A stretch of DNA of 64,000 bases, from positions 193,110-257,109 of the forward strand of contig CANQYI010000001.1 in assembly GCA_947628005.1 (NCBI GenBank). Direction: 5' to 3'. How positions within the stretch are numbered: position 1 is the stretch's first letter; each line of letters opens with the position of its first letter. Below are positions 11,463 through 58,880 of the stretch, one piece after another. Below the pieces are notes generated by a model. The model did not search any database, was not told the DNA's origin, and saw only the letters and a program-made list of their open reading frames with translations. The DNA comes from an uncultured Clostridia bacterium. Its GTDB lineage: Bacteria > Bacillota > Clostridia > TANB77 > CAG-465. Both the position numbers and the translations under genes were made by a program.

Positions 11463-12476
11463 ATGAATGATTATAAAATAAACATTTCAAAAATATATTA
11501 TGAAAAAAATGCATTAGAATTTGATTTAACTAAAAATATATTTGACGAATATAAAAATATTGAAAAGATTCCTATTGAATCCCACAATAATATTGAAGAA
11601 TTAAGAAAGTCAGAAAACAAAGACTTTGGTAAATTAAAAAATATTCTTGTACTTGGCACAAGGAAAACTTTTAAATATGTTGAAAACCATAAAATTTCTG
11701 ATTTTCTAGTGCCTTTTACTTCCTCTGGATGTTATGCTATGTGTATGTATTGCTACCTTGTTTGTAACTTTAATAAATGTTCTTATTTACGTCTATTTGT
11801 AAATCAAAAACAAATATTAGATAAACTCGTTAAACATGCAAATAACTCTTTGACAGAATATACTTATGAAATTGGTAGCAATAGTGATCTTTTACTAGAA
11901 AATTTGATTTCAAAAAACCTATATAACAATATTGAATATTTTTTGCAAAATACTAAACATGGAAAACTTACTTTTCCAAGCAAATTTAAATATATCGAAC
12001 CTTTAAAAGATATTTCTGATAAATCAAGATTACTTCCTCGAATAAGTTTAAACCCCGAAAATATTATAAACAAAGTAGAATTTAGAACCAGTAATTTAAT
12101 AGATAGATTACACGCTATAAATTCCTTATATTACTTTGGTTATAAACCATATATTTTAATTGCTCCTGTTATAATTACTGATAATTTTGAAGAAGATTAT
12201 AATGAATTATTTTCAACTATGCACGCTTTGCTTGATAAAAAATTGCACGATAAAATAACATTTGAAGTAATTTTTATGACTTACAGTTATGTTCATAGAA
12301 AAATAAACGAAGAAGCCTTTCCAAAAGCTATAAACTTATACTCTGAAAAGTTAATGACTTCTCGTGGTGTAGGAAAATATCATTATAAAATGCAAGTAAA
12401 AGATTATGGAAAAAACTATATTGAACATTTAATAAAAGTTTTCTTTCCAAAAGCTACTATAAAATATATTGTATAG
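11463..12476 (+). CDS. splB: spore photoproduct lyase (radical SAM, SplB-like)
   Basis: Start taken at MNDYKINIS. The ORF-track extension from 11196 is antisense to acpP and is rejected. The CxxxCxxC motif sits in [13 protein letters not shown], which closely resembles the B. subtilis SplB cluster. Length is about 337 aa. Confidence 0.7.
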
Positions 12477-12510
12477 AAAAAACGGACTAGAATATTCTAG
12501 TCCATTTTTA
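12477..12510. terminator. bidirectional rho-independent terminator (perfect 20-bp palindrome GGACTAGAATATTCTAGTCC flanked by A-run and T-run)
   Basis: Seen directly at 12484-12503. Lies between the convergent splB and paralog-1 genes. The paralog-1 stop codon sits inside the hairpin. Confidence 0.75.
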
Positions 12511-12982
12511 TTGTAAAGTAGTAATCCTTTTCATCGACGCCTTTAAATTTGTATGTGACGCCCTCGCTTCCGTTATCAGGGTAATCGAGCTTATATTCAT
12601 CACTACCCAATTTTGAAAAATCACAAGTAACCCAGTTATTAGCTTTATTGTCCCACCGCAGCAAAGATGTTATTTGCTCTGTATTCACGATATAATACGT
12701 TTCATCTGCGTTTGGACCGCTAAAACTTTGCATATTCTCGATACTCGACGAAAAATCTGTATACGTCGATATCTTATTTGATATTTTGTTTCCTGCGCTC
12801 ACTCGGCTAATGGAGATGACATCATGCTCACAAAATAAGCTTGCGGCTATGGCAATTATGCCCATCAGTCCTACCGAAATTACAAGTATAAGTGGAACAA
12901 TGAAATCTAGTACTTCTAGGAAGCTACAGATCCTTTCCCGCTTTTCTTCTTTCTGCCATGTTGTAAGGCACCTTTTTCTCAT
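12497..12982 (-). CDS. small membrane-anchored protein, paralog 1 of a tandem triplet (short cytoplasmic N-terminus, one TM, ~110-aa extracytoplasmic domain)
   Basis: Shares the TWDDTSNNW/RWDNKANNW…(C)D(F/C)…(E/D)YK…(F/Y)P(N/D) signature with paralogs 2 and 3. Own promoter TTGACA-17-TAAAAT on the minus strand at 13027-13055, and an AGGAGG RBS. Confidence 0.7.
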   Translation of the reverse strand: MRKRCLTTWQKEEKRERICSFLEVLDFIVPLILVISVGLMGIIAIAASLFCEHDVISISRVSAGNKISNKISTYTDFSSSIENMQSFSGPNADETYYIVNTEQITSLLRWDNKANNWVTCDFSKLGSDEYKLDYPDNGSEGVTYKFKGVDEKDYYFTIKMD

Positions 12983-13103
12983 TTTTATTCCTCCTCGTAA
13001 ATTATTAAAAGATTATAGAAAAAAACTATACGCATATTTTATCATCTTTTATGTAAAATGTCAATATTTTTTCAAATTTATGTAAAATTAGTAGCTATAT
13101 AAA

Positions 13104-13135
13104 AAACGGGCTAGAATATTCTAGTCCGTTTTATT
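13104..13135. terminator. rho-independent terminator, second copy of the CGGGCTAGAATATTCTAGTCCG palindrome
   Basis: Near-identical to the 12484-12503 palindrome, with one G·U wobble. The paralog-2 stop codon is inside it. Confidence 0.65.
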
Positions 13136-13600
13136 TAAATTAACTATCGTAAAATAAAATTCGTATTTATCAACTGTTAATTTGTAATTTGCAACCTCAT
13201 CTTCATTTAAATCATTAGGAAAATTAAATTTATATTCTTTATTATTGATTTCAATTAACTCACAGTCACTCCAATTGTTACTGGTATCATCCCATGTAAC
13301 TAAAGACACTTTTCCTTTCATGTCATAATAAAAATTTATTATATAATACGCTCTCTCAGAATTTTCATTAAAATTTTGTGGATTTTCAACACTTGTATAA
13401 AAATTATCATACAATACAATTTCTTCTGAAACACCATCCTTTACATTAATTCGCTGTACATGAAATGAAGTAAATATTGAATACCTCACTGACCAAATAC
13501 CAATTAGAAGAAAACAACTTAATAACAAAATAGCTACGATGACAGCAGGTAATTTGTTCGAAACACGATTTCTAACATGTTTAGTCTGTTCTTCTTTCAT
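13121..13600 (-). CDS. small membrane-anchored protein, paralog 2 of the tandem triplet
   Basis: High identity to paralog 3 over the full length (MKEEQTKHVRNRVSNKLPAVIVAILLL… against MNEEQTKHVRKRLSDKLPAVILAILLI…). Confidence 0.7.
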   Translation of the reverse strand: MKEEQTKHVRNRVSNKLPAVIVAILLLSCFLLIGIWSVRYSIFTSFHVQRINVKDGVSEEIVLYDNFYTSVENPQNFNENSERAYYIINFYYDMKGKVSLVTWDDTSNNWSDCELIEINNKEYKFNFPNDLNEDEVANYKLTVDKYEFYFTIVNLNKTD

Positions 13601-13709
13601 AATGAAATCCTCCTCATAAATTATTAGAAAAATTAAAGGAAAAATACGAATACATTATATTATTTTTTTGGCATTTACATAAACTATAAATATAAACGGT
13701 CAAAATATT

Positions 13710-14186
13710 CTAGTCCGTTTTATTTGAATTAACTATCGTAAAATAAAATTCTTTATTATCAGCTATCAATCTGTAATTTACAGCTTTATCTTCCTTTAAT
13801 TCATTAGGAAAATTAAATTTATATTCTTTATAATTGATTTCAAATAACTCACAGTCACTCCAATTGTTACTGGTATCATCCCATGTAGCTAAAGAGACTT
13901 TTCCTTTTATGTCATAAGAAAAATTTATCATATAGTACACTTGTTCAGAATTTTCGCTAAAATTTTGTGGATTTTCAACACTTACATGAAAAGTATCGTA
14001 CAATACAATTTTTTCTGAAACACCATCCTCTACATTAATCCGACATACGTAAAATGAATGACAAACACCATACACTCCCCAAATAAAAAGTGCAAAAAAG
14101 CAAATTATTAATAAAATAGCTAAGATGACAGCAGGTAATTTGTCCGAAAGACGCTTTCTAACATGTTTAGTCTGTTCTTCGTTCAT
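13710..14186 (-). CDS. small membrane-anchored protein, paralog 3 of the tandem triplet
   Basis: As paralog 2. Consensus promoter TTGACT-17-TATAAT on the minus strand (about 14230-14260) and an AAGGAGG RBS. Confidence 0.7.
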   Translation of the reverse strand: MNEEQTKHVRKRLSDKLPAVILAILLIICFFALFIWGVYGVCHSFYVCRINVEDGVSEKIVLYDTFHVSVENPQNFSENSEQVYYMINFSYDIKGKVSLATWDDTSNNWSDCELFEINYKEYKFNFPNELKEDKAVNYRLIADNKEFYFTIVNSNKTD

Positions 14187-14295
14187 AAAAAATCCTCCTT
14201 GTATATTAATAAAGAAATGGAAAATAAACTATGCGCGTATTATATCATTTTTTTGTTAAAAAGTCAATTTTTTAAATTTTTATAGATAAAAATAA

Positions 14296-14335
14296 AAAGC
14301 CCTAGAAGCTAAAGTTCTAGAGCCTTTTATTCAAT
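14296..14335 (-). terminator. tuf terminator (imperfect CTAGAA/TTCTAG hairpin followed by a T-run on the minus strand)
   Basis: GCTCTAGAA…TTCTAGGGC stem followed by TTTTTATTTTT in the transcript sense, immediately 3' of the tuf stop. Confidence 0.55.
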
Positions 14336-14342
14336 TATTAAA

Positions 14343-15545
14343 TTATTCAATTATAGCAGATACTGAACCAGCACCAACTGTTCTACCACCTTCACGAATA
14401 GCGAATTTTAATCCTTTTTCTATAGCGATAGGTGTTATTAATTTAATTTTCATTGTTACATTATCACCTGGCATTACCATTTCTTTATCAGCTGGTAAAT
14501 CGATTACACCTGTAACATCAGTTGTTCTGAAGTAGAATTGTGGTCTATAACCTTTGAAGAATGGAGTATGTCTTCCACCTTCTTCTTTAGTTAATACATA
14601 AACTTCAGCTTCGAATTCAGTATGTGGATGAATTGTTCCTGGTTTAGCAAGAACTTGACCTCTTTCGATTTCGTTTCTTTGAACACCTCTTAGAAGTACA
14701 CCAGCATTATCTCCTGCTTCAGCAGATGCTAATTCTTTTCTAAACATTTCGATTCCTGTTACAACTGTTTTTCTAGTTTCAGTAGTTAAACCAACGATTT
14801 CAACTTCTTCACCAATTTTTAAAGATCCTCTTTCGATTCTTCCTGTTGCAACTGTTCCTCTACCAGTTATTGTGAATACATCTTCAACTGGCATTAAGAA
14901 AGGTTTATCTGTTTCTCTTTGAGGAGTTGGGATGTATGTATCAACAGCATCTAATAATTCTTTGATACATGCATATTCAGGAGCATTAGGATCTGTTGAT
15001 GTAGATTCAAGAACTTTTAAAGCAGAACCTTGAATTATTGGAGTAGTATCTCCAGGGAATTCATATTTGTTTAATAGATCTCTTATATCCATATCAACTA
15101 ATTCTAATAATTCTGGATCGTCAACCATATCACATTTGTTCATGAAAACAACTATGTAAGGAACACCAACTTGTCTAGCAAGTAGAATATGTTCTCTAGT
15201 TTGTGGCATTGGACCATCAGCAGCAGAAACAACTAGGATTGCACCATCCATTTGTGCAGCACCAGTGATCATGTTTTTAACATAGTCAGCGTGTCCTGGA
15301 CAGTCAACGTGTGCATAGTGTCTGTTTGCTGTTTCATATTCAACGTGAGCAGTAGAGATTGTAATACCTCTTGCTCTTTCTTCTGGAGCTCCATCGATTT
15401 GATCGTATGCTTTAAATTCAGCTCCACCAGTTAAGCTACAGTATTTAGTTATTGCAGCTGTAAGTGTAGTTTTACCATGGTCAACGTGACCAATAGTACC
15501 AATATTAGCGTGTGGTTTGTTTCTTTCAAACTTAGCTTTTGCCAT
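14343..15545 (-). CDS. tuf: elongation factor Tu
   Basis: [17 protein letters not shown] and NKCD GTPase motifs. Full-length, highly conserved. Confidence 0.98.
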
Positions 15546-19023: not shown

Positions 19024-19350
19024 GTGATGTACATGAATAGTTTAAATTCCTATGTTGGAAAAAGAATTAAAGAATATAGAGAAGTAAAAGGTTACACACA
19101 AGAATATATGGCAAAAGAACTTGATATTGCTACTAACCACTATGGAAGAATTGAACGTGGAGAAAACTCTTGTACTATGAACAATCTAGTATCTATATGT
19201 AACATATTAGAAGTTAATCCTAACGATATACTAGGTGAGTTAATAATTAATAAAGATAATGAACTTTTAAAAGATTTAGATAAATTGTCTGTAGACAACA
19301 GAATTGTGGCCTCTAAATTTGTTAAATTTTTACTAAATAATCAAAAATAA
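19024..19350 (+). CDS. XRE-family helix-turn-helix transcriptional regulator (Cro/C1-type)
   Basis: HTH_3-like core (…GYTQEYMAKELDIATNHYGRIERGENSCTMNNLVSICNILEVNPNDIL…). Likely start at an ATG at 19027 or 19033. Confidence 0.75.
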   Translation: MMYMNSLNSYVGKRIKEYREVKGYTQEYMAKELDIATNHYGRIERGENSCTMNNLVSICNILEVNPNDILGELIINKDNELLKDLDKLSVDNRIVASKFVKFLLNNQK

Positions 19351-19353
19351 TAA

Positions 19354-19405: not shown

Positions 19406-20608
19406 TTAATTTTTTAATATTACATATGTATCTAAAATATTATAATATTGCATAGTATTTTTTTGTAAATCTAGATATTCTTTATAATCTCTTCTACTTA
19501 ATCTTTTTACTATTTTTTCTGGTATTTCACTTATAGTTTTTTCCACTCTAAATTCAACTAACACTTCATTTTCATTACTATCTAAAATGTCTTCTAATTG
19601 AGTAGAAAAATTTTTACTAGCAGAAATAGTCTTTTGGCTAACCTCATAATAGTTATACTTTTCAGATTTAGCTTCTGGAACTATATTAATATCAGTAAAT
19701 TTATGTGACTGTTGTATATATTCATTAGTAACATTGAAATATGAGTGAACTACCGCATCTTCGCTATCTTTGATAGTTTTATCAGATGTTAAATCAACAT
19801 TATACCATTCATCTTCAATAAGTACCATATTCCAAGCATGAGGATCAGATTCAAGTGTTCCAGTTACAAGAATACTTGGTATTGAAACTTTTTCTAAAGC
19901 TAATTGATATAGTTTTGTAAATCCATCACAAACAGCAGTTTTATCTACTATGCCAGAATATACTGTATGATAAATTTCCGGTATCTCTGATATACTATTA
20001 TATTCGTAGTACTTTACATTTTTTGCAATAGCATCATGTAATTGTAGTTCCTTCTGATAAGCACTATCATCAGCTTTAACCTGTAAAGTATACTTTTCAA
20101 TTCCTGTATTTACTTTTTCTATTTCTTCATTTAATTTATCAACAGAATCCACATTATAGCCAAGATATATTTTTACAGAATTTCCTAGTATAGAAGAATT
20201 TGTAAGTATTTGATACTCTGTATTTAAATAGAATACTTCTGGATGATCAGCAAAAAAGCTTTCCATTGCAGAATTTATATCATTTGATACGTTATTAAAA
20301 TTGTACTCTTTATTAAATTTTATTAATACCTTTTCATCTAAATTTTTTACAGCATTTGCAATATGGGTATATATATTTTTTTGATTATCATCTAGTTTAT
20401 CATAATAGTATGTATTATAAGCTATTTTCCCCAAATCATTTATTAGAAAATCTTTGTTATAATCTTCTAAATTTTTAGTTTTTATGCCTATCAACATAAA
20501 ATCTAAATTTTCTTTCATATTTTCTAAAGCATCATTGTTAGTAAATAAAAATATTCCACCTACTACAATTACAGCTATAATAAATAAACAACAAAAAAAT
20601 TTTTTCAT
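19406..20608 (-). CDS. membrane-anchored transglutaminase-like (Cys-His-Asp) domain protein
   Basis: N-terminal TM. Transglutaminase-like core catalytic triad context (…TAVCDGFTKLYQLA…DPHAWNMVLIEDEWYNVDLT…). Confidence 0.6.
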   Translation of the reverse strand: MKKFFCCLFIIAVIVVGGIFLFTNNDALENMKENLDFMLIGIKTKNLEDYNKDFLINDLGKIAYNTYYYDKLDDNQKNIYTHIANAVKNLDEKVLIKFNKEYNFNNVSNDINSAMESFFADHPEVFYLNTEYQILTNSSILGNSVKIYLGYNVDSVDKLNEEIEKVNTGIEKYTLQVKADDSAYQKELQLHDAIAKNVKYYEYNSISEIPEIYHTVYSGIVDKTAVCDGFTKLYQLALEKVSIPSILVTGTLESDPHAWNMVLIEDEWYNVDLTSDKTIKDSEDAVVHSYFNVTNEYIQQSHKFTDINIVPEAKSEKYNYYEVSQKTISASKNFSTQLEDILDSNENEVLVEFRVEKTISEIPEKIVKRLSRRDYKEYLDLQKNTMQYYNILDTYVILKN

Positions 20609-30119: not shown

Positions 30120-31220
30120 TTATTTCATATAAAGAGCTACGCGAAAGCCTCTACCATATTCAACATTAGGAAATTCATAACCTCTCAAAGAAGCAGAATA
30201 GTTAACACTTCCCATTTCATGCATGCCACCTCTACATATTCTATATTTATTTTTATACGATTCCATTGTCCATTCATAAACATTACCAGCCAAGTCATAT
30301 ATATTTTTTACCGAATTAATAATATTATCACTATCTGTACCTGTTAATTGTGCTGATGCACTCACATAATATCCCATATTAGTACTATCTTCTATATATT
30401 TTTTATTATTATATGGATTTTCTATATCACTAACAAAGTCCATAATTAAATCCCACTCAATACCATAACATAGAGTAGATATAACGCCTGTATCATTTGT
30501 TAAATTATCAGGTAGACCGTATTTTGATAATTGATTAACGTTTGGATACATAGAACGTGCAACTTTTACTGCTCCATCTTCTGTATCACTTCCTTGAATT
30601 CCATCTAAAGCATAACCATATGGAGAGCCCCATCTTATATTTTCCCAAACGCATTTTCCTTTTTTGGATACTGGTTGCACAGAACCATCTGTAAATAACA
30701 TTATTTTCTCTTTTTCAATTCCCGCTTCATATCTTGCAATATAAAATCCTTGATATTTATACATACTTTCATATAATTCTTTAGATTCAACTGTTGAATT
30801 AATATAATCCGCCGCATAACAATTAGTAAGGAATTCTTGTTCAGAGCCTCTATAATACCCTTCTTTCCCTTTAAAAGAAGCAATATCCTTTACCGGTATC
30901 CATACAAATTGATTTCCTTTTTCATCTTCTATAACAAGTCCATCATTCCATCCTTTAGGATGATTATTTTCATCAAGTTCCCAACTTGCAGTTTCAGTTT
31001 CTACTTTTTTAAAGCCTTTTGGAATAATGGGAGTATTATAATAACTTATTATTTCAATGCCTTCATAAGGTTTATAATTATCGACATATATATCAACATT
31101 TTGTGAATTAGTATCATCTTCTATACTATTATTTTTTTTAATAATTACTATTGTTGAAATTGTTACTATAATACTAACAATTACAATTAATATTAAATAT
31201 ATAATTTTTTTATTACTCAT
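30120..31220 (-). CDS. membrane-anchored formylglycine-generating enzyme (FGE-sulfatase/SUMF1) domain protein
   Basis: N-terminal TM. C-terminal …RICRGGMHEMGSVNYSASLRGYEFPNVEYGRGFRVALY resembles the FGE-sulfatase domain C-terminal signature. Confidence 0.55.
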   Translation of the reverse strand: MSNKKIIYLILIVIVSIIVTISTIVIIKKNNSIEDDTNSQNVDIYVDNYKPYEGIEIISYYNTPIIPKGFKKVETETASWELDENNHPKGWNDGLVIEDEKGNQFVWIPVKDIASFKGKEGYYRGSEQEFLTNCYAADYINSTVESKELYESMYKYQGFYIARYEAGIEKEKIMLFTDGSVQPVSKKGKCVWENIRWGSPYGYALDGIQGSDTEDGAVKVARSMYPNVNQLSKYGLPDNLTNDTGVISTLCYGIEWDLIMDFVSDIENPYNNKKYIEDSTNMGYYVSASAQLTGTDSDNIINSVKNIYDLAGNVYEWTMESYKNKYRICRGGMHEMGSVNYSASLRGYEFPNVEYGRGFRVALYMK

Positions 31221-42328: not shown

Positions 42329-45300
42329 TTATATATTTTTCTTTTTATATATAATCATTGATGCGGCCATAGCTATAATACATACAATCATAATTATAAT
42401 ATAATTTAATATATTATCTCCCGTATTTGGATTTTGAATATTTTGGTCTTCATCAACTTTATTATCTTCAGCATTAGATATTTCCTTATATACAGGTTTT
42501 ACCGTTAAATTTTCAAATATCTGAGTTTCTAGTGTAAGTTTTTCATCAGTATCCACAATTTCAAAATCTGAAAATTCTTTTTCACCTTTAAATTTATTTT
42601 TTATTTCTTCTAATTTTTCTTTTTCCTCTGAAGACAAATCATTTAAAGTTTTTCCTTCTTCCACAGTTAATGTCTGCTCTCCGTCCTCTGTTACTACTGT
42701 AATTACGACATTATATTTTGGAGTAAGTATAATATTTTCATTAAGTATTGTATAAAAATCTACTTCATTTCCAAGTTCATCAACAAATTTTTCCGCAAAC
42801 ACTTTATTTTCAGCACTTACAAAAGAATTTAAAGTATCCATTTGGTCTTCTGTAAGTCTATGTAATACAAAATCTTCTGGAACATCAAAAGATACTGTAG
42901 TCTCATCTAATTTTTTTATAGTTACATTAATATTATATTTTGGTATAATTACTATATTTTCAGTTAAAACTTTTTCCTCTGAAATATCTTGATTTTCTTC
43001 ATCTACGTATCTATCAAATTGTTTATTTTTTACTCCACTTTCGAATTGCTCTAACTTATTAGCCATACCTTTTAAAGTTGAGCCTTCTTCTACCTTTATA
43101 TCTTCGTAAGTTCCGTCATCTTTTTGAACTTTTACATGTATATCATATTTTGGTATTATTGTTACATGTTCACTAAAAGTACTTGCTACATCTATTAAAT
43201 TACCGTCTAAATCATAATAGCCTTTAAAATCTTTATTTGTTTTTTCTTCAAATTGTTGTCTTAATGTTTCTTCTAAAGCAGATAAACTTGAGCCTTCTAG
43301 CATCTCTAATTCAACTTGACTATCATATTGTGGTTTAACTGTTACAGTTATTTTATATACAGGTGTTAAAGTTGTTCTCTTTGCTATAGAAGTTGTAAAA
43401 TCTACTTTATTTCCTTCACTATCAATAAAATAAGCTAAATCCTTATTATCTTTTTTTACTAAATCTTTAATTTCATTTTGTGTTGATTCATCTAAAGAAT
43501 TTAGGTTTTCTCCTTCATTTAAAATGTAATTTTCAGTCTTATTTGTACCATTTATTGTTACAGTAATAGTTTGATTATATATTGGTATAAATTGAGTACT
43601 CTCATTTATTGGTTCATCATAATCTACTATTTTACCATTATCATTTATAAAATGTTCAAAATTTACACTTTCAGTAATAAACTCTTCTATTTGATTTATT
43701 ACATCTGCGCCTAAACTTCTTAAAGTTTGACCTTCTTTTAAAGTAAATTTCTTCTCTGTTTTATCAAGTTTTACAACTGTTACTACGACATTATATTTTG
43801 GAGTAAGTTCAGTATTTTCAAATATTTTTGTAGAATAATCTACAATTTCATTTTCTGAATTTTCAAATTCATTTCTGAAAACTTTTTTGTCAACACTAAC
43901 TTCTGACTCTAATTTTTCTTTTTGACTAGAAGATAAGTCATTTAAAGTTTTGCCCTCTTCTAATTCAAATGTCTCTTTTCCAACTTTTACACTTACATTA
44001 TAAATAGGAGTTATTTCAATATCTTCATTTACAACTGTATTTTTAGTTATGTTTTCGTCTTCATTATTAACATTTACAAATTTTGCAAATGTTTTATTAG
44101 TAACTTTTTCATATTTTGCTAAAGATTCAGATAAATCTGCTAAAAAGCTACCATTTTCTAATTCAAATTCTTCACTACTTTCATTGTAAGTAACCTTTAC
44201 TTTTACAGTATATTTAGGTATTATTGTAGTTTCTTCAATTATTATTGTATCATCTTTTACATCAGATCCATTTTGATCTACAAATCTTATGAATCTATCA
44301 TTCTTTCTAATATTATCAATTACTTCTTTAAGTGATGGATCTTTACTTAATGCATCAGAAAAAGAAATTCCTTTAATTACCTCATAACATGTATCATTAA
44401 CATATAGATTTACTTTCTCTTTTGATACTGGGTATAAGTCCATATTTTGAGTTACTGTTTCTTTAGTGTCAAATTCTAATGTATCACCAGCAATCTTTTC
44501 AAACCATGAATAGTCATCATCTTGTGTTTCTGGAAGTTCTTCAATTCCATCAACTAATCCGCCTTTATCATATACTTTTATTGTACAATTTCCATCTTTA
44601 TCAAAAATTCCAATTACTGCATAATTGCTGTTTACATTATATTTTGATTCAATAGTATTTGGATTTACTTTAACGCTACTTTCTAAATATATCAAATTAT
44701 TATTATCTTCTCTGTTATTTGCTCCAAAATTGAATATACTACTTCCAGTTCCGCCAAAGTAATCATCTATAGTTGTGTTCCCTGTAATTCTTATATTAGT
44801 ATTATTACTTACACTTTCTCCATCAAATGAAATTAAATATGTAGGCTCTTCACCTTTTGAATCGTTACCTTCAATTGTACAATTATCTATAGTTAATTTT
44901 AAATTGTTTTGTCTAATTATTGATATTGCTTCATCTTCAAAGAAATATGATGAACGTCCTTCTATAGTTGTACCATTACATAGATTAAGTTCATTGTTGC
45001 TACCGTTTGCTAGTCTAATTGCCATTGTACATAAAATTTTGGAATTATCAAAAGTTAATTTATTATTTGATGACTCTACATTTATACCATCATAAAGTGA
45101 GCAAAAAGTTGTATTTTTAGCATTTACAACTGTTCCATCTGCACCCTTTTGTATATTTAATGATGTTGTTTCATGAGTTTGACTTAATGTTCTACCAATA
45201 TGAAAAATTTCTACATTATTGAAAGTTAAATTTACTGGTTTTTGTATATCGTAAAAAATATGTCCATCTTTTGGCTGTTGATTATCACTTGAAAATCCTT

Positions 45301-45841
45301 CTAAATATACATCATTTTTAGTTTCATCTTCATCTGTTATTATTATTTTAGGAGTAATGAAAGTTATATTTCTACCTTTTCCAATAATAGATATGCTCTT
45401 ATTAATAATTATATCGCTACCACCGTAGTTTCCTTTTTCTAGTATAAGTTTACTTCCTGGCTGAGCATTTAATATTGCTTGATTCAAAGTATTTACTCCT
45501 GGTTTAACTGTTATTTCCTGAGGTAGGCTTTGAATTTCTGCTATAGGTAAAACTTCTTGTTCTAAATTATTGATATTTAAAACTTTATCTTGCTCAATAA
45601 TAATGTTATTATTATTTTCTGATAAAGTTTCACTTTCTACATTATTTTCACTAATTTCATCAGTTTCATCAATTTCAACAGTTTCATCAGTTTCTTTTAT
45701 AACATCTTCATTTTGTTCTACTTTCTCTAAATTGTCTTCCTTCACTTCAATTATTTGTTCTGTTGCAAGGCATATATCAGGTGTTAAAAACGAAATAATC
45801 ATCAAGACAGCAAAGAATACTTTAGTTAATTTTTGTAACTT
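42329..45841 (-). CDS. large cell-wall-anchored surface protein: signal peptide, beta-helix-like N-terminal domain, about 9 tandem ~70-aa repeats, NPNTG sorting signal
   Basis: Start taken at MKLQKLTKVFFAVLMIISFL. Repeats carry the motif (T/I)P(K/I)Y(N/T)V.V.V…E.G.(T/S)L. C-terminus NPNTGD followed by a hydrophobic TM and KKKNI, a cell-wall sorting signal layout. Confidence 0.7.
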   Translation of the reverse strand, partial: KLQKLTKVFFAVLMIISFLTPDICLATEQIIEVKEDNLEKVEQNEDVIKETDETVEIDETDEISENNVESETLSENNNNIIIEQDKVLNINNLEQEVLPIAEIQSLPQEITVKPGVNTLNQAILNAQPGSKLILEKGNYGGSDIIINKSISIIGKGRNITFITPKIIITDEDETKNDVYLEGFSSDNQQPKDGHIFYDIQKPVNLTFNNVEIFHIGRTLSQTHETTSLNIQKGADGTVVNAKNTTFCSLYDGINVESSNNKLTFDNSKILCTMAIRLANGSNNELNLCNGTTIEGRSSYFFEDEAISIIRQNNLKLTIDNCTIEGNDSKGEEPTYLISFDGESVSNNTNIRITGNTTIDDYFGGTGSSIFNFGANNREDNNNLIYLESSVKVNPNTIESKYNVNSNYAVIGIFDKDGNCTIKVYDKGGLVDGIEELPETQDDDYSWFEKIAGDTLEFDTKETVTQNMDLYPVSKEKVNLYVNDTCYEVIKGISFSDALSKDPSLKEVIDNIRKNDRFIRFVDQNGSDVKDDTIIIEETTIIPKYTVKVKVTYNESSEEFELENGSFLADLSESLAKYEKVTNKTFAKFVNVNNEDENITKNTVVNEDIEITPIYNVSVKVGKETFELEEGKTLNDLSSSQKEKLESEVSVDKKVFRNEFENSENEIVDYSTKIFENTELTPKYNVVVTVVKLDKTEKKFTLKEGQTLRSLGADVINQIEEFITESVNFEHFINDNGKIVDYDEPINESTQFIPIYNQTITVTINGTNKTENYILNEGENLNSLDESTQNEIKDLVKKDNKDLAYFIDSEGNKVDFTTSIAKRTTLTPVYKITVTVKPQYDSQVELEMLEGSSLSALEETLRQQFEEKTNKDFKGYYDLDGNLIDVASTFSEHVTIIPKYDIHVKVQKDDGTYEDIKVEEGSTLKGMANKLEQFESGVKNKQFDRYVDEENQDISEEKVLTENIVIIPKYNINVTIKKLDETTVSFDVPEDFVLHRLTEDQMDTLNSFVSAENKVFAEKFVDELGNEVDFYTILNENIILTPKYNVVITVVTEDGEQTLTVEEGKTLNDLSSEEKEKLEEIKNKFKGEKEFSDFEIVDTDEKLTLETQIFENLTVKPVYKEISNAEDNKVDEDQNIQNPNTGDNILNYIIIMIVCIIAMAASMIIYKKKNI

Positions 45842-46023
45842 CATAAAAATCCTCCTTAAACTTGTAATAATTATACCATCCATTTAGAAATATTTCAATC
45901 AAATTTCGACATTTTTATCATTACATAGCAGGTAATTTTTGCCTAAATATTCAAATATTGCCTTTTTTTAATTTTTATGCTATATTTTAACAAAACGTAC
46001 TAAAAATTTTTGGAGGATTTTTT

Positions 46024-52511: not shown

Positions 52512-52574
52512 TAAAGTATATCAAAAAAGCAAGTGATTGTAAATACATTCACTTACTTGTGTAAATTGTAATTT
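52512..52574 (-). promoter_or_regulatory. conserved promoter/operator module, copy 1 (minus-strand TTTACA-17-TATACT with an AAGTGA-N12-TCACTT palindrome over the -35)
   Basis: Near-identical ~60-bp sequence present six times in 52.5-63.2 kb. Reads as a sigma-A-like promoter toward the DUF1287 gene. Confidence 0.6.
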
Positions 52575-53076
52575 ATCTTTTAACTTTTTTAATAAATAGG
52601 AAGTAAACGATTATAGGTATTATTATTAAATCTGGTATAGTAAATGTTCTAACTAGTATATAATTTCCAATAATTGTTACTAAAATAAGTCCTATTGATA
52701 TAAATTTGGCAAATAATCCTTCTTCTTTTGTTTTCCAAGTAAAATAAGCAAATAAAGGCGATAAACAAGAAAATATTGTCCAACCTTTGATAAAATTCCA
52801 GCTATATACTGCATTTGTTAATTCTGCTGTTACATAGTATGAAATTAGCATTCCTATACAAAATGGAAATATATTTATCATTGCTTTTTTCCTTGTATCA
52901 CTATATATCGAAATCAATATTCCTAATAGTACCCATATTGGTAAATCTGAAAACATATATCCAAGTGTCATCATAAATAAATTGCCAACAAAAAGTATAT
53001 CCAATAATTTGCTTATTATTCCTAAAATAGCACCTATAAAAAATAATGAAATAGGATTTAATATATATTTCTTCAT
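52573..53076 (-). CDS. hypothetical polytopic membrane protein (167 aa)
   Basis: 4-5 TM helices. Downstream of repeat-module copy 2. Confidence 0.45.
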   Translation of the reverse strand: MKKYILNPISLFFIGAILGIISKLLDILFVGNLFMMTLGYMFSDLPIWVLLGILISIYSDTRKKAMINIFPFCIGMLISYYVTAELTNAVYSWNFIKGWTIFSCLSPLFAYFTWKTKEEGLFAKFISIGLILVTIIGNYILVRTFTIPDLIIIPIIVYFLFIKKVKR

Positions 53077-53158: not shown

Positions 53159-53584
53159 ATGTTGGAGTGTAAAATAAATTTTTACACTTCAACATTATTT
53201 TTTAGCAAAAAAATTCAACATACTTCTATCGGTCATATTTCTTCCTTTTTGATTCTTAAAAAACGTAGATATGTTTGCACACATTGTGGCAAAAGATTTT
53301 TTGAAAAATATGATTTCTTACAAAAATATTTTAGAAAATCTAATGCTGTCTTTAACAATGTTTGTGATGATCTAAAATCTTTGAAAAATTTTAAAACTAT
53401 TGCTAAAGATAATAATGTTTCTACTCCTACCGTTGTGAGATATATGCATTACAATTATTATTTTTCTAACAAACATAATTTTGCCTTACCTGAAAAATTG
53501 GTATTGATGAATTTAAAGGTAACTTATGCTGTTTTATTGAATAGAAAAGAGAAAAAGAAATATAATATAGTAAATGGTTATTGA
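53159..53584 (+). pseudogene. ISL3-family transposase N-terminal remnant (zinc-ribbon + HTH only)
   Basis: …KKRRYVCTHCGKRFFEKYDFLQ… (zf-ISL3-like) followed by an HTH-like …NNVSTPTVVRYMHY…. The DDE catalytic domain is absent. Confidence 0.5.
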
Positions 53585-57519: not shown

Positions 57520-58880
57520 AACAAAAGTGAATCAAAGATTCACTCCACTACAAAAATGTAGTGTTCTTTATAAAGAGTATGGTAGTCTTTAAGTTTTATA
57601 CTTTTAGGCTACTCTTTTCTTTATTGGTCGTTGTTCTCGACCATTATCCATCGCAATTTCTTGGTTTGGAATATAATTATTTATATATTTTCTTAATATA
57701 TTTAAACTTCCGTTTATATCCGCATTTATTTCTTTTCCGGCGTTTGTTATAAATAATCCTCTATATTTTCTTCTTTTTTTATTATAATTTTCTTTATTTA
57801 CTTCTTCTCTATCTATTGCACTTACTCCTGATGTATATCTTTCACTTATCTTTACTACTTCTATTCCTTCTATTTTTGCTTTGTATTCTATCTTTTTAAC
57901 TAACTGTTCTAATGGTATCTGCACGAAATCCTTGTTATAGTTCATATTTTGTTTTATATTTTTTAAATCTCCTATCACTATTTTTGAACATTTATTTTTT
58001 ATTGCATATTCTATTACCATCCTTGATACCTTATGCATAAATGTATTCATATAATCATTACGCTTTTTCCTTAATCTTTTTATTTGCTTTGTATCTTTAT
58101 ACTTTTTATTTCCTACCATTTTCATTTTTATTTGTTGTAAGTTCTTTACTTTTTCATTTATATATTTATTCTTACTTTTGGCTTCCTTTCCTGATACAAG
58201 CAACATATCCATATTTTCCTTATTTGTACATGCTACAATATTATTTATCCCTAAGTCTATTGCCATTATATTTCCTGCTTTACTTGTTTCCTTTTCTTCT
58301 TTTTCATATACTATATTCATTTCTATTTCTTTTCCTTTATTTTTTATCTTTATCATTTTTATGTCTGAAACTAATATTTGCTTTTTTAATTTTCTTGGTA
58401 TTAAAAAATTTAAACTTTCTACTCTATTATTTTCTTGCATTTTCTTTGATATTGATAATTTTATTTTATTTCCTTCTATTCTTACTGCATATTTAGTAAA
58501 TACTATCTCTTGTTCTTGCTTTTCTTTTTTGTATCTTGTATATTTTGGTTCTCCTTTTAATGTGCTTTTATCTTTTTCATATTTTTTCTTTAATGCTATG
58601 TATGATTTATAACTTCCTAATACACTAAGTATAGCCTCTTGTAACATATGTGAATGCAAATACTTGCTATGCCAGTTTTCTTGTCTATACTTTCTATATA
58701 TTGGGGTTGCTATTATATTTATACTTTTTGTAACATCAATTTTTTCTTTTCCCTCTTTTATATCATACAATAACATATTCATTACTTTCTTTGTATGCCA
58801 CTCTAATTCATTAATTATTCTTAATTGTTCTTCACTTGGTTTTTTTATAGAATATTTTAAACTTAGTTTCATTTTTTCCC
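57520..58880 (-). mobile_element. IS200/IS605-family element remnant (tnpB only, no tnpA), with two perfect 7-bp hairpins at the 3' (right) end
   Basis: Hairpins GTGAATC-aaa-GATTCAC (57527-57543) and CACTACA-aaaa-TGTAGTG (57546-57563) lie 40-80 nt downstream of the tnpB stop. Element boundaries are approximate. Confidence 0.45.
57604..58872 (-). CDS. TnpB-like protein (IS200/IS605 OrfB family) with apparent loss of the RuvC-II Glu and of the zinc-finger cysteines
   Basis: RuvC-I MAIDLGINN and RuvC-III NADINGSLNI are present. The expected hhhEDL motif reads KIVIGDL. The CxxC…CxxC positions read TSGVSAIDRE and GLFITNAGKEI, with no Cys in the C-terminal 120 aa. Confidence 0.65.
   Translation of the reverse strand: MKLSLKYSIKKPSEEQLRIINELEWHTKKVMNMLLYDIKEGKEKIDVTKSINIIATPIYRKYRQENWHSKYLHSHMLQEAILSVLGSYKSYIALKKKYEKDKSTLKGEPKYTRYKKEKQEQEIVFTKYAVRIEGNKIKLSISKKMQENNRVESLNFLIPRKLKKQILVSDIKMIKIKNKGKEIEMNIVYEKEEKETSKAGNIMAIDLGINNIVACTNKENMDMLLVSGKEAKSKNKYINEKVKNLQQIKMKMVGNKKYKDTKQIKRLRKKRNDYMNTFMHKVSRMVIEYAIKNKCSKIVIGDLKNIKQNMNYNKDFVQIPLEQLVKKIEYKAKIEGIEVVKISERYTSGVSAIDREEVNKENYNKKRRKYRGLFITNAGKEINADINGSLNILRKYINNYIPNQEIAMDNGREQRPIKKRVA

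Follow-up and report, generated by a model that had tools for sequence, protein, structure and literature searches.

Why should three related genes for small proteins stand in tandem directly behind tuf, facing a gene for a spore photoproduct lyase? The question is raised by a 64,000-nucleotide stretch of an uncultured gut Clostridia bacterium (contig CANQYI010000001.1, positions 193,110 to 257,109 of the forward strand; hereafter the window), in which positions 12477-14342 hold three homologous open reading frames (ORFs) on the minus strand, between tuf and a convergent SPL-family gene. An earlier note on this DNA, made from the sequence alone, had described them as a triplicated membrane-anchored protein gene; its observation proved largely correct and was overstated in two details, the identity of copies 2 and 3 and the intactness of the promoters and terminators. 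The explanation that we favour, and hold tentatively at somewhat less than an even chance, is that the genes are imported, moron-like cassettes that recombine with one another and encode fast-evolving, outward-facing membrane proteins with a shield or decoy role. They would then represent a lineage-restricted, probably horizontally acquired family of small single-pass membrane proteins with a cytoplasmic N terminus and an external C terminus (N-in/C-out).

A recombining array between tuf and splB

The array begins downstream of tuf (EF-Tu; 14343-15545, minus strand; GTP_EFTU domains) and ends at the convergent SPL-family gene, spore photoproduct lyase (splB; 11463-12476, plus strand; PF20903). 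In between lie copy 3 (13710-14186, 158 aa), copy 2 (13121-13600, 159 aa) and copy 1 (12497-12982, 161 aa), all on the minus strand. That three paralogous small-protein genes occupy this junction is real. Copies 2 and 3, previously called nearly identical, share 73% of their protein residues and 84-88% of their DNA, with a synonymous divergence (dS) of ~0.17, and the repeat period of their DNA unit is 586-589 nt. Copy 1 is divergent as described, at 31-33% protein identity to the other two, and differs in composition (GC 0.39; GC at third codon positions, GC3, 0.41). Alignment of the three copies leaves the blocks W-D-[DN]-x-x-N-N-W-x-x-C, E-Y-K and Y-F-T-I invariant.

The array is not an artefact of assembly, since the same three-gene arrangement occurs in at least one other contig, of 243 kb and from another sample, and the exact array proteins are also recorded for a 258-kb NCBI contig; the exact copy 3 protein is found in both NCBI and ENA assemblies. 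In all contigs carrying the array, the flanks are fusA-tuf on one side and splB-acpP-rnc on the other.

Copy number varies in this otherwise stable setting. Three copies are present in the window and in L035, and two in L001/L002, which are conspecific with the window (identity of 100% for tuf and 98.8% for SplB). The earlier note had raised the prospect that all relatives might lack the array. The sister lineage (SplB 87.5% identical, splB dS 0.76) does carry a family gene at this junction: a single copy stands between tuf and splB in L024. In L016, also of the sister lineage, a copy-3-like gene lies directly beside splB, with no gene of the copy-1 type.

Several alleles are mosaics when typed at the positions where copies 2 and 3 differ. 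In L001 the first gene (L001_a) combines a type 3 promoter, a type 2 5' coding sequence (CDS), a type 3 3' CDS and a type 2 terminator. P0001 joins a 5' end of copy 3 to a 3' end of copy 2, as a deletion crossover would be expected to do, and P0003 places the tuf-proximal promoter on a copy-2-type gene. The breakpoints (-17..-2, +269..+279, +355..+400 and +461..+484) fall in or beside blocks that are 93-100% identical between copies. Three such homology blocks exist: one spans the 5' untranslated region (5'UTR) and the initial ~23 codons, a second is the core WDDTSNNWSDCEL...EYKFNFPN, and a third takes in the final codons and the terminator. We conclude that recombination drives the variation in both copy number and alleles. 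Through homologous recombination at the three blocks the array grows, shrinks and is reshuffled, so that chromosomes which are nearly identical elsewhere carry one, two or three genes, with mosaic alleles among them.

Expression signals

Near-consensus sigma-A-type promoters, identified by promoter scan and alignment, precede copy 3 (TTGACT-17-TATAAT with an extended -10 TG; 14239-14267, minus strand) and copy 1 (TTGACA-17-TAAAAT with TG; 13036-13064, minus strand). The two promoter/5'UTR regions are homologous, with an identity of 79-81%. The situation is different for copy 2. Its upstream region, the copy 3-copy 2 spacer (13601-13709, minus strand), retains TATAAT at 13659-13654, while the -35 box has been lost to a 9-bp deletion and the extended -10 TG is missing; the promoter scan found nothing with at least 9 of 12 matches there. 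The spacer holds a decayed terminator as well, the hairpin of copy 3 (~13693-13722), which folds at -6.1 kcal/mol (z -0.9).

Stable hairpins follow the other two genes. The one after copy 2 (13103-13132, minus strand) folds at -12.9 kcal/mol (z -3.9) and contains the stop codon in its 5' arm. The one after copy 1 is the perfect palindrome GGACTAGAATATTCTAGTCC (12484-12503, both strands), a bidirectional terminator common to copy 1 and the convergent splB, with a folding energy of -17.1 kcal/mol (z -6.2) on the minus strand and -15.2 kcal/mol (z -5.1) on the plus strand. Upstream, the tuf terminator (14290-14332, minus strand; -20 kcal/mol, z -5.6) separates the str operon from the array. In all three copies the last codons and the stop, AAA AYG GAC TAG, constitute the 5' arm of the hairpin, and a GGAGG ribosome-binding site precedes each gene, both as the earlier note had read them.

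That note had also given every copy its own promoter and terminator and, with these, independent expression. The promoters stand for copies 3 and 1 and the terminators for copies 2 and 1, while copy 2 has neither -35 box nor TG and the hairpin of copy 3 has decayed; independent expression of each copy fails with copy 2, whose own promoter is lost. At least two units with strong sigma-A-type signals (P3 and P1) remain. Because copy 2 has lost its -35 box and the terminator of copy 3 has decayed, copies 3 and 2 are probably co-transcribed as a bicistronic message, and the most economical reading of these signals is that of two transcription units. Viewed as moron-like promoter-to-terminator cassettes behind the tuf terminator, they would comprise Unit A, P3-copy3-copy2-T2, and Unit B, P1-copy1-T1, with T1 doubling as the terminator of splB.

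We also considered whether the hairpin and promoter block might be a genome-wide or mobile repeat, and rejected this. Within the window neither occurs outside the array; the hairpin sequence has no match in viral contigs, and the seven sites that match it in metagenome contigs belong to unrelated terminators, none of which has a family gene close by.

A narrowly distributed family of two clades

The earlier note had found no recognisable domain in these proteins, and searches of Pfam, NCBIfam, PHROGs, PADLOC and PDB profiles bear this out. Pfam-A returned no match (best E 0.059, 14 bits against a cut-off of 27; DUF600 was not matched either), and NCBIfam none even at E 10. In the PDB sequence profile search only chance matches to bL19 appeared (E >= 0.08), and these were discarded.

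Profile searches of 5.8 billion clusters yielded six unnamed clusters at first and 16 later, and the family amounts to ~17 clusters in this collection. An exhaustive HMMER search of 1.84 billion representatives gave three hits, namely the same two 50% clusters and a weak match to P0007 (E 2e-4). P0007 leads to a second small clade, which is linked to the first by hhalign with a probability of 96% (E 4.6e-9, 122 columns). The two clades are only 15-25% identical, yet they hold sequence blocks that are invariant across alleles and clades. Second-clade genes follow an ABC-2 transporter in L028/L029 and L017, lie near a Wzt-type exporter in L032 and adjoin a ferritin gene in L034; the neighbour of P0016 in L032 was suspected to be a paralogue and proved to be an unrelated protein of 144 aa. 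As called in the database, P0007 (L017-L022) and P0008 read through an in-frame TGA (...YYFTVK-W-NGIKSS), and the close homologue P0009 stops at YYFTVK. Gene calling with genetic code 4 has probably produced this read-through as an artefact, and real recoding is the less likely cause.

No family member was found among GTDB species representatives or in JGI metagenomes, and no further member in the rest of the window or in ten loci of splB relatives. The closest SplB relatives in GTDB are metagenome-assembled genomes of uncultured Clostridia at 62-74% identity, some of them, by their record names, from rabbit (Lapin) or Hadza human gut. In ten distant relatives, neither tuf nor a family gene was detected beside splB (in flanks of up to 6 kb where the contig allowed), and the splB-tuf junction was found only in the window species and its sister lineage. 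The neighbourhood, described earlier as highly conserved, is conserved only among close relatives. We conclude that the array genes belong to a new orphan protein family of two clades with a very narrow distribution.

This distribution also bears on a possible role in sporulation or germination, which the location might bring to mind. Such a role has in its favour only the proximity of splB and the common terminator. The array genes are convergent with splB and not co-transcribed with it, their promoters have the vegetative sigma-A form, second-clade genes lie away from splB, and splB in the ten relatives lacks such a neighbour. We consider a sporulation role highly improbable.

Fast evolution and foreign composition

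Rates of evolution were estimated by Nei-Gojobori (NG86) counts, with the neighbouring genes run identically as an internal control. For copy-2/3-type genes, the ratio of nonsynonymous (dN) to synonymous divergence, dN/dS, was 0.5-0.8 in the ectodomain, 0.8-1.5 in the tail and transmembrane region and 0.5-1.1 overall. The control genes gave 0.09-0.11 for splB and no nonsynonymous change at all in tuf and fusA. Between L016 and L024, splB has a dS of 0.02, yet the family genes differ at a dN of 0.17. In the 5' third of the L024 gene, an unrelated and longer hydrophobic sequence stands in place of the transmembrane-coding segment (P0006, 170 aa); it might form two helices and alter the topology. 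Compensated frameshifts were considered as the source of this region of P0006 and rejected, since the DNA itself is replaced there. Every recovered allele is an intact ORF with its indels in frame, at a protein divergence of up to 34% among copy-2/3-type alleles. Protein evolution in the family is fast.

A different pattern emerges when the window is compared with the sister lineage, where the family dS is 0.19 against 0.76 for splB, a four-fold lower value, and the tuf-proximal intergenic region that carries the copy 3 promoter is 92% identical (to L024). The low dS together with the similar promoter region suggests that the segment comprising tuf and the array was exchanged more recently than splB, or else is constrained at the nucleotide level. 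The pattern further suggests a recombination tract ending at the terminator hairpin.

Could the genes simply be dispensable young orphans under relaxed constraint, with duplication and mosaics as neutral by-products of tandem repeats? A dN/dS of 0.5-1.1 would be expected of such genes, as would the tiny distribution, a copy number that changes freely between strains, and decay in the promoter of copy 2 and the terminator of copy 3. On the other hand, no allele contains a stop or a frameshift, while random sequence of 27% GC would by our estimate meet a stop about once per 12 codons. The blocks shared by two clades as distant as these, the preservation of near-consensus promoters and ribosome-binding sites with a promoter region well conserved in the sister lineage, and an ectodomain dN/dS consistently below 1 likewise speak for constraint. 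Neutral drift is in our judgement an improbable account of the array.

The array genes are also set apart by base composition. With GC3 values of 0.41 for copy 1 (z +10.6), 0.23 for copy 3 (z +3.5) and 0.20 for copy 2 (z +2.4), they have the three highest GC3 values among the 57 window ORFs of at least 120 aa; the other 54 have a mean of 0.139 with a standard deviation of 0.025. The copy 1 CDS shows a sharp GC step at both of its borders, and its flanks are native-like. Second-clade genes in four loci (L028, L032, L034 and L017) reach a GC3 of 0.31-0.35 in surroundings of 26-27% GC, so copy 1 is not alone in exceeding its host in GC3; no clear elevation is seen in the copy-3-like genes of L016 and L024, at 0.18. 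Taken together, the deviating GC3 of the array genes, the sharp step at copy 1 and the elevated values of the second clade point to a horizontal origin.

Flanks and coding sequence of copy 1 have different relationships. The flanks match those of the other units at 79-92% identity, the codon-aligned CDS at only ~51%. One could imagine that the place behind tuf is a fixed, highly expressed site for swappable cassettes, in which the promoter/5'UTR and the stop-containing terminator would act as recombination handles. Divergent ectodomain genes, foreign ones like the GC-rich copy 1 among them, would be brought in, traded between lineages and shuffled, so that a new class of outward-facing defence or immunity proteins would vary within populations of uncultured gut Clostridia. 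This disparity, combined with the differing GC3, is consistent with such a site, and so are the low family dS relative to splB between the sister lineages and the high family dN between L016 and L024 despite nearly unchanged splB. We regard the idea as a speculative one that is probably not correct in this form.

Predicted architecture and fold

Each protein contains a single hydrophobic segment of 19 residues (Kyte-Doolittle mean 2.9-3.2) after a net-basic tail, followed by an acidic C-terminal part with a net charge of about -7 to -10 that includes an ectodomain of ~110 aa. Because a basic tail, one hydrophobic segment and an acidic C-terminal part occur in this order, an N-in/C-out signal-anchor topology is predicted. 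An AlphaFold2 (AF2) model built from a 15-sequence alignment (mean predicted local distance difference test, pLDDT, 80.3) has a helix at residues 3-39 and then eight to nine strands. For copy 3, the ORF and the model together give a predicted basic tail, transmembrane helix and beta-sandwich ectodomain. The arrangement of a basic N terminus, one transmembrane segment and an ectodomain, proposed earlier, thus agrees with predictions from hydropathy, charge and AF2. Each protein would accordingly present a short basic cytoplasmic tail, an anchor helix and an acidic immunoglobulin (Ig)-like domain at the outer face of the membrane.

Two other kinds of membrane attachment were rejected. A type IV pilin or pseudopilin would carry a class III signal ahead of the hydrophobic helix (G at -1, F/M at +1, E at +5), and no copy has the G-F-x-x-x-E motif; the sequences read ...SDKLPAVIL..., ...SNKLPAVIV... 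and ...CSFLEVLDF.... A lipoprotein would carry a lipobox [LVI][ASTVI][GAS]C at the end of the hydrophobic region, and this is likewise missing from every copy: the Cys after the copy 3 helix is preceded by Y-G-V, and that Cys is absent from copy 2.

When two models were compared with the PDB by Foldseek, only Ig-like sandwiches were retrieved, among them RhoGDI, filamin, CopC, titin and S-layer domains. These matches are weak and non-significant, with a best E of 5e-3, template-modelling (TM) scores of 0.3-0.54 and identities of 6-16%, and a Foldseek search of BFVD gave no significant fold match. The ectodomain is predicted from the models to be a generic Ig-like beta-sandwich. It would share the sandwich of eight to nine strands with Ig-like/E-set domains such as those of filamin, RhoGDI, CopC and the S-layer protein Sap, and differs from them in that the array proteins do not conserve the residues which serve those families as metal or lipid ligands.

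A fold of this kind could also suit a structural or housekeeping envelope factor, for example an anchored beta-sandwich that binds a cell-wall glycopolymer or a lipid carrier, possibly together with ABC-2 exporters. Consistent with this are the conserved loop rich in Trp, Asn and Asp (WDDTSNNW) on a sandwich resembling Ig domains and carbohydrate-binding modules, fold neighbours that include accessory domains of glycoside hydrolases and the lipid-binding RhoGDI, and the transporter and exporter genes near members of the second clade. The fold matches are all weak (E >= 5e-3, TM score mostly < 0.5), however, and the gene context differs between the clades. Moreover, a copy number of one to three, absence from relatives and foreign codon usage would be unexpected for a housekeeping gene. 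We therefore think a structural envelope role rather unlikely.

A possible defensive role

The earlier note had suggested abundant surface-exposed proteins with functions such as immunity, receptor masking or adhesion. That interpretation, in which abundance and surface exposure are inferences, is plausible, and the evolutionary evidence now gives it a firmer footing: a polymorphic copy number, mosaic alleles, a raised dN/dS and a foreign composition fit the immunity and receptor-masking class better than housekeeping. We propose with modest confidence that the proteins act as a defensive shield or decoy at the membrane surface. Like immunity proteins that face outward, such a protein would bind a co-evolving external antagonist, for instance a secreted toxin or a bacteriocin.

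The closest parallels to the array itself are type VII secretion system (T7SS) immunity genes. The esaG and tipC arrays consist of non-identical tandem paralogues, in which recombination adds and removes copies, and TipC gives immunity to the lipid II phosphatase TelC (Garrett et al. 2022, PMC9484751). The tipC genes encode a membrane-bound, outward-facing product and recombine as tandem paralogues with 5' and 3' homology blocks (PMC9484751). The array studied here resembles both in having non-identical tandem paralogues that recombine through conserved blocks around a variable middle, and TipC also in the topology predicted for its proteins. It differs in several respects. No T7SS and no LXG/Tel toxin locus is present in the scanned window ORFs or related loci, there is no match in sequence or fold (the 50 best Foldseek matches do not include TipC, 6DHX), and TipC has a lipoprotein signal where the array proteins have a signal-anchor helix. 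The array also comprises only one to three genes, in units with their own promoter and terminator.

This last feature is that of a phage moron, which brings its own promoter and terminator and stands out in GC content (Cumby et al. 2012, PMC3594210). The units here are similarly autonomous, copy 1 having a promoter and a terminator and copies 3 and 2 together one of each; their base composition is sharply unlike that of their neighbours, and they encode small membrane proteins. Unlike morons, they occupy a core chromosomal site between tuf and splB rather than a prophage, are tandemly duplicated and have no relative in PHROGs or IMG/VR.

A third comparison is with outward-facing proteins of Gram-positive bacteria, the LanI-type lantibiotic immunity lipoproteins and the Ltp/Sie-type exclusion proteins, which like the array proteins are small, tether a compact extracytoplasmic domain to the membrane and are made from a constitutive promoter. 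The lanI gene adjoins lanFEG, which may be compared with the gene of one clade that lies beside an ABC-2 transporter (L028). In contrast to those proteins, the array proteins have no lipobox and no match in sequence or structure, and their genes have neither lantibiotic nor prophage genes as neighbours. Small accessory genes of an envelope- or immunity-like kind, in tandem arrays that recombine, were known already, as were moron-like cassettes; the protein family is new.

The moron likeness gives rise to the nearest rival of a shield or decoy against toxins, namely that the proteins serve in phage superinfection exclusion or receptor masking, blocking adsorption or DNA injection, and are former prophage morons left behind in the chromosome. 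Cassettes with their own promoter, terminator and deviant GC are what defines a moron, phage-excluding small membrane proteins are encoded by many morons (PMC3594210), and fast protein evolution and variable copy number would be expected as well. Against this origin, tuf and splB flank the genes in every contig with no phage genes nearby, no PHROG matches at E < 0.003, no member lies on IMG/VR contigs and the BFVD fold matches are non-significant. We judge phage exclusion to be unlikely, if less so than the envelope role or neutral drift.

Several observations also weigh against the shield or decoy that we favour. In Pfam scans of 30 further ORFs of the window (about half of its ORFs of at least 120 aa) and in precomputed domains for the related loci, only housekeeping domains appeared, with no gene for a toxin, a T7SS or other secretion system, a bacteriocin or a prophage. 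The PADLOC defence models gave no match at E up to 1, the best PHROGs match (E 0.0033, not significant) was to a family of unknown function, and none of the IMG/VR viral contigs contains a family member. The second-clade genes are single-copy and lie in unrelated contexts. With regard to the rates, an ectodomain dN/dS below 1 is equally compatible with relaxed constraint, and NG86 estimates are rough in so AT-rich a genome; the comparison of copy 2 with P0002, at 12 nonsynonymous and 0 synonymous differences, is suggestive and is not significant alone (binomial p ~0.085, computed by hand). Finally, copy 1 has an A-I-A/A motif after its hydrophobic stretch, read by eye, and because of it the signal of copy 1 may be cleavable, which would release the protein rather than anchor it.

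If the defensive reading is true, the family would be an undescribed outward-facing immunity or exclusion family in uncultured, very AT-rich gut Clostridia, and the locus a compact case of moron-like cassettes that diversify in a core site by recombination between paralogues. The ~17 clusters of 'hypothetical proteins' would gain an architecture, the definition of a two-clade family and a testable hypothesis. If it is false, the locus still illustrates cleanly, in a natural setting, how a tandem array behaves; its general consequence is then limited, since only a few lineages have the family.

Other features of the window

The 64-kb window contains no tRNA gene and no Rfam family at gathering score, despite rpoB/C, the str operon and many housekeeping genes; no ribosomal-protein leader or riboswitch was detected. 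An integration target and a 5'UTR element were discarded as candidates, the Rfam and tRNA scans of the 64 kb having given no match for either. Four ORFs have no Pfam match (E 1e-4 to 1e-5): 42329-45883 (minus strand, 1184 aa), 30120-31220 (minus strand, 366 aa), 52573-53076 (minus strand, 167 aa) and 53159-53584 (plus strand, 141 aa). A TnpB-type transposon protein of the IS200/IS605 insertion sequence group, with OrfB_IS605 and Cas12f1-like TNB domains, is encoded at 57604-58872 (minus strand, 422 aa). Between rpoC and rpsL, a transglutaminase-core protein (19406-20608, minus strand) and a small helix-turn-helix (HTH) regulator (~19034-19351, plus strand) interrupt the usual junction of rpoBC and the str operon, and the same arrangement is found in L001.

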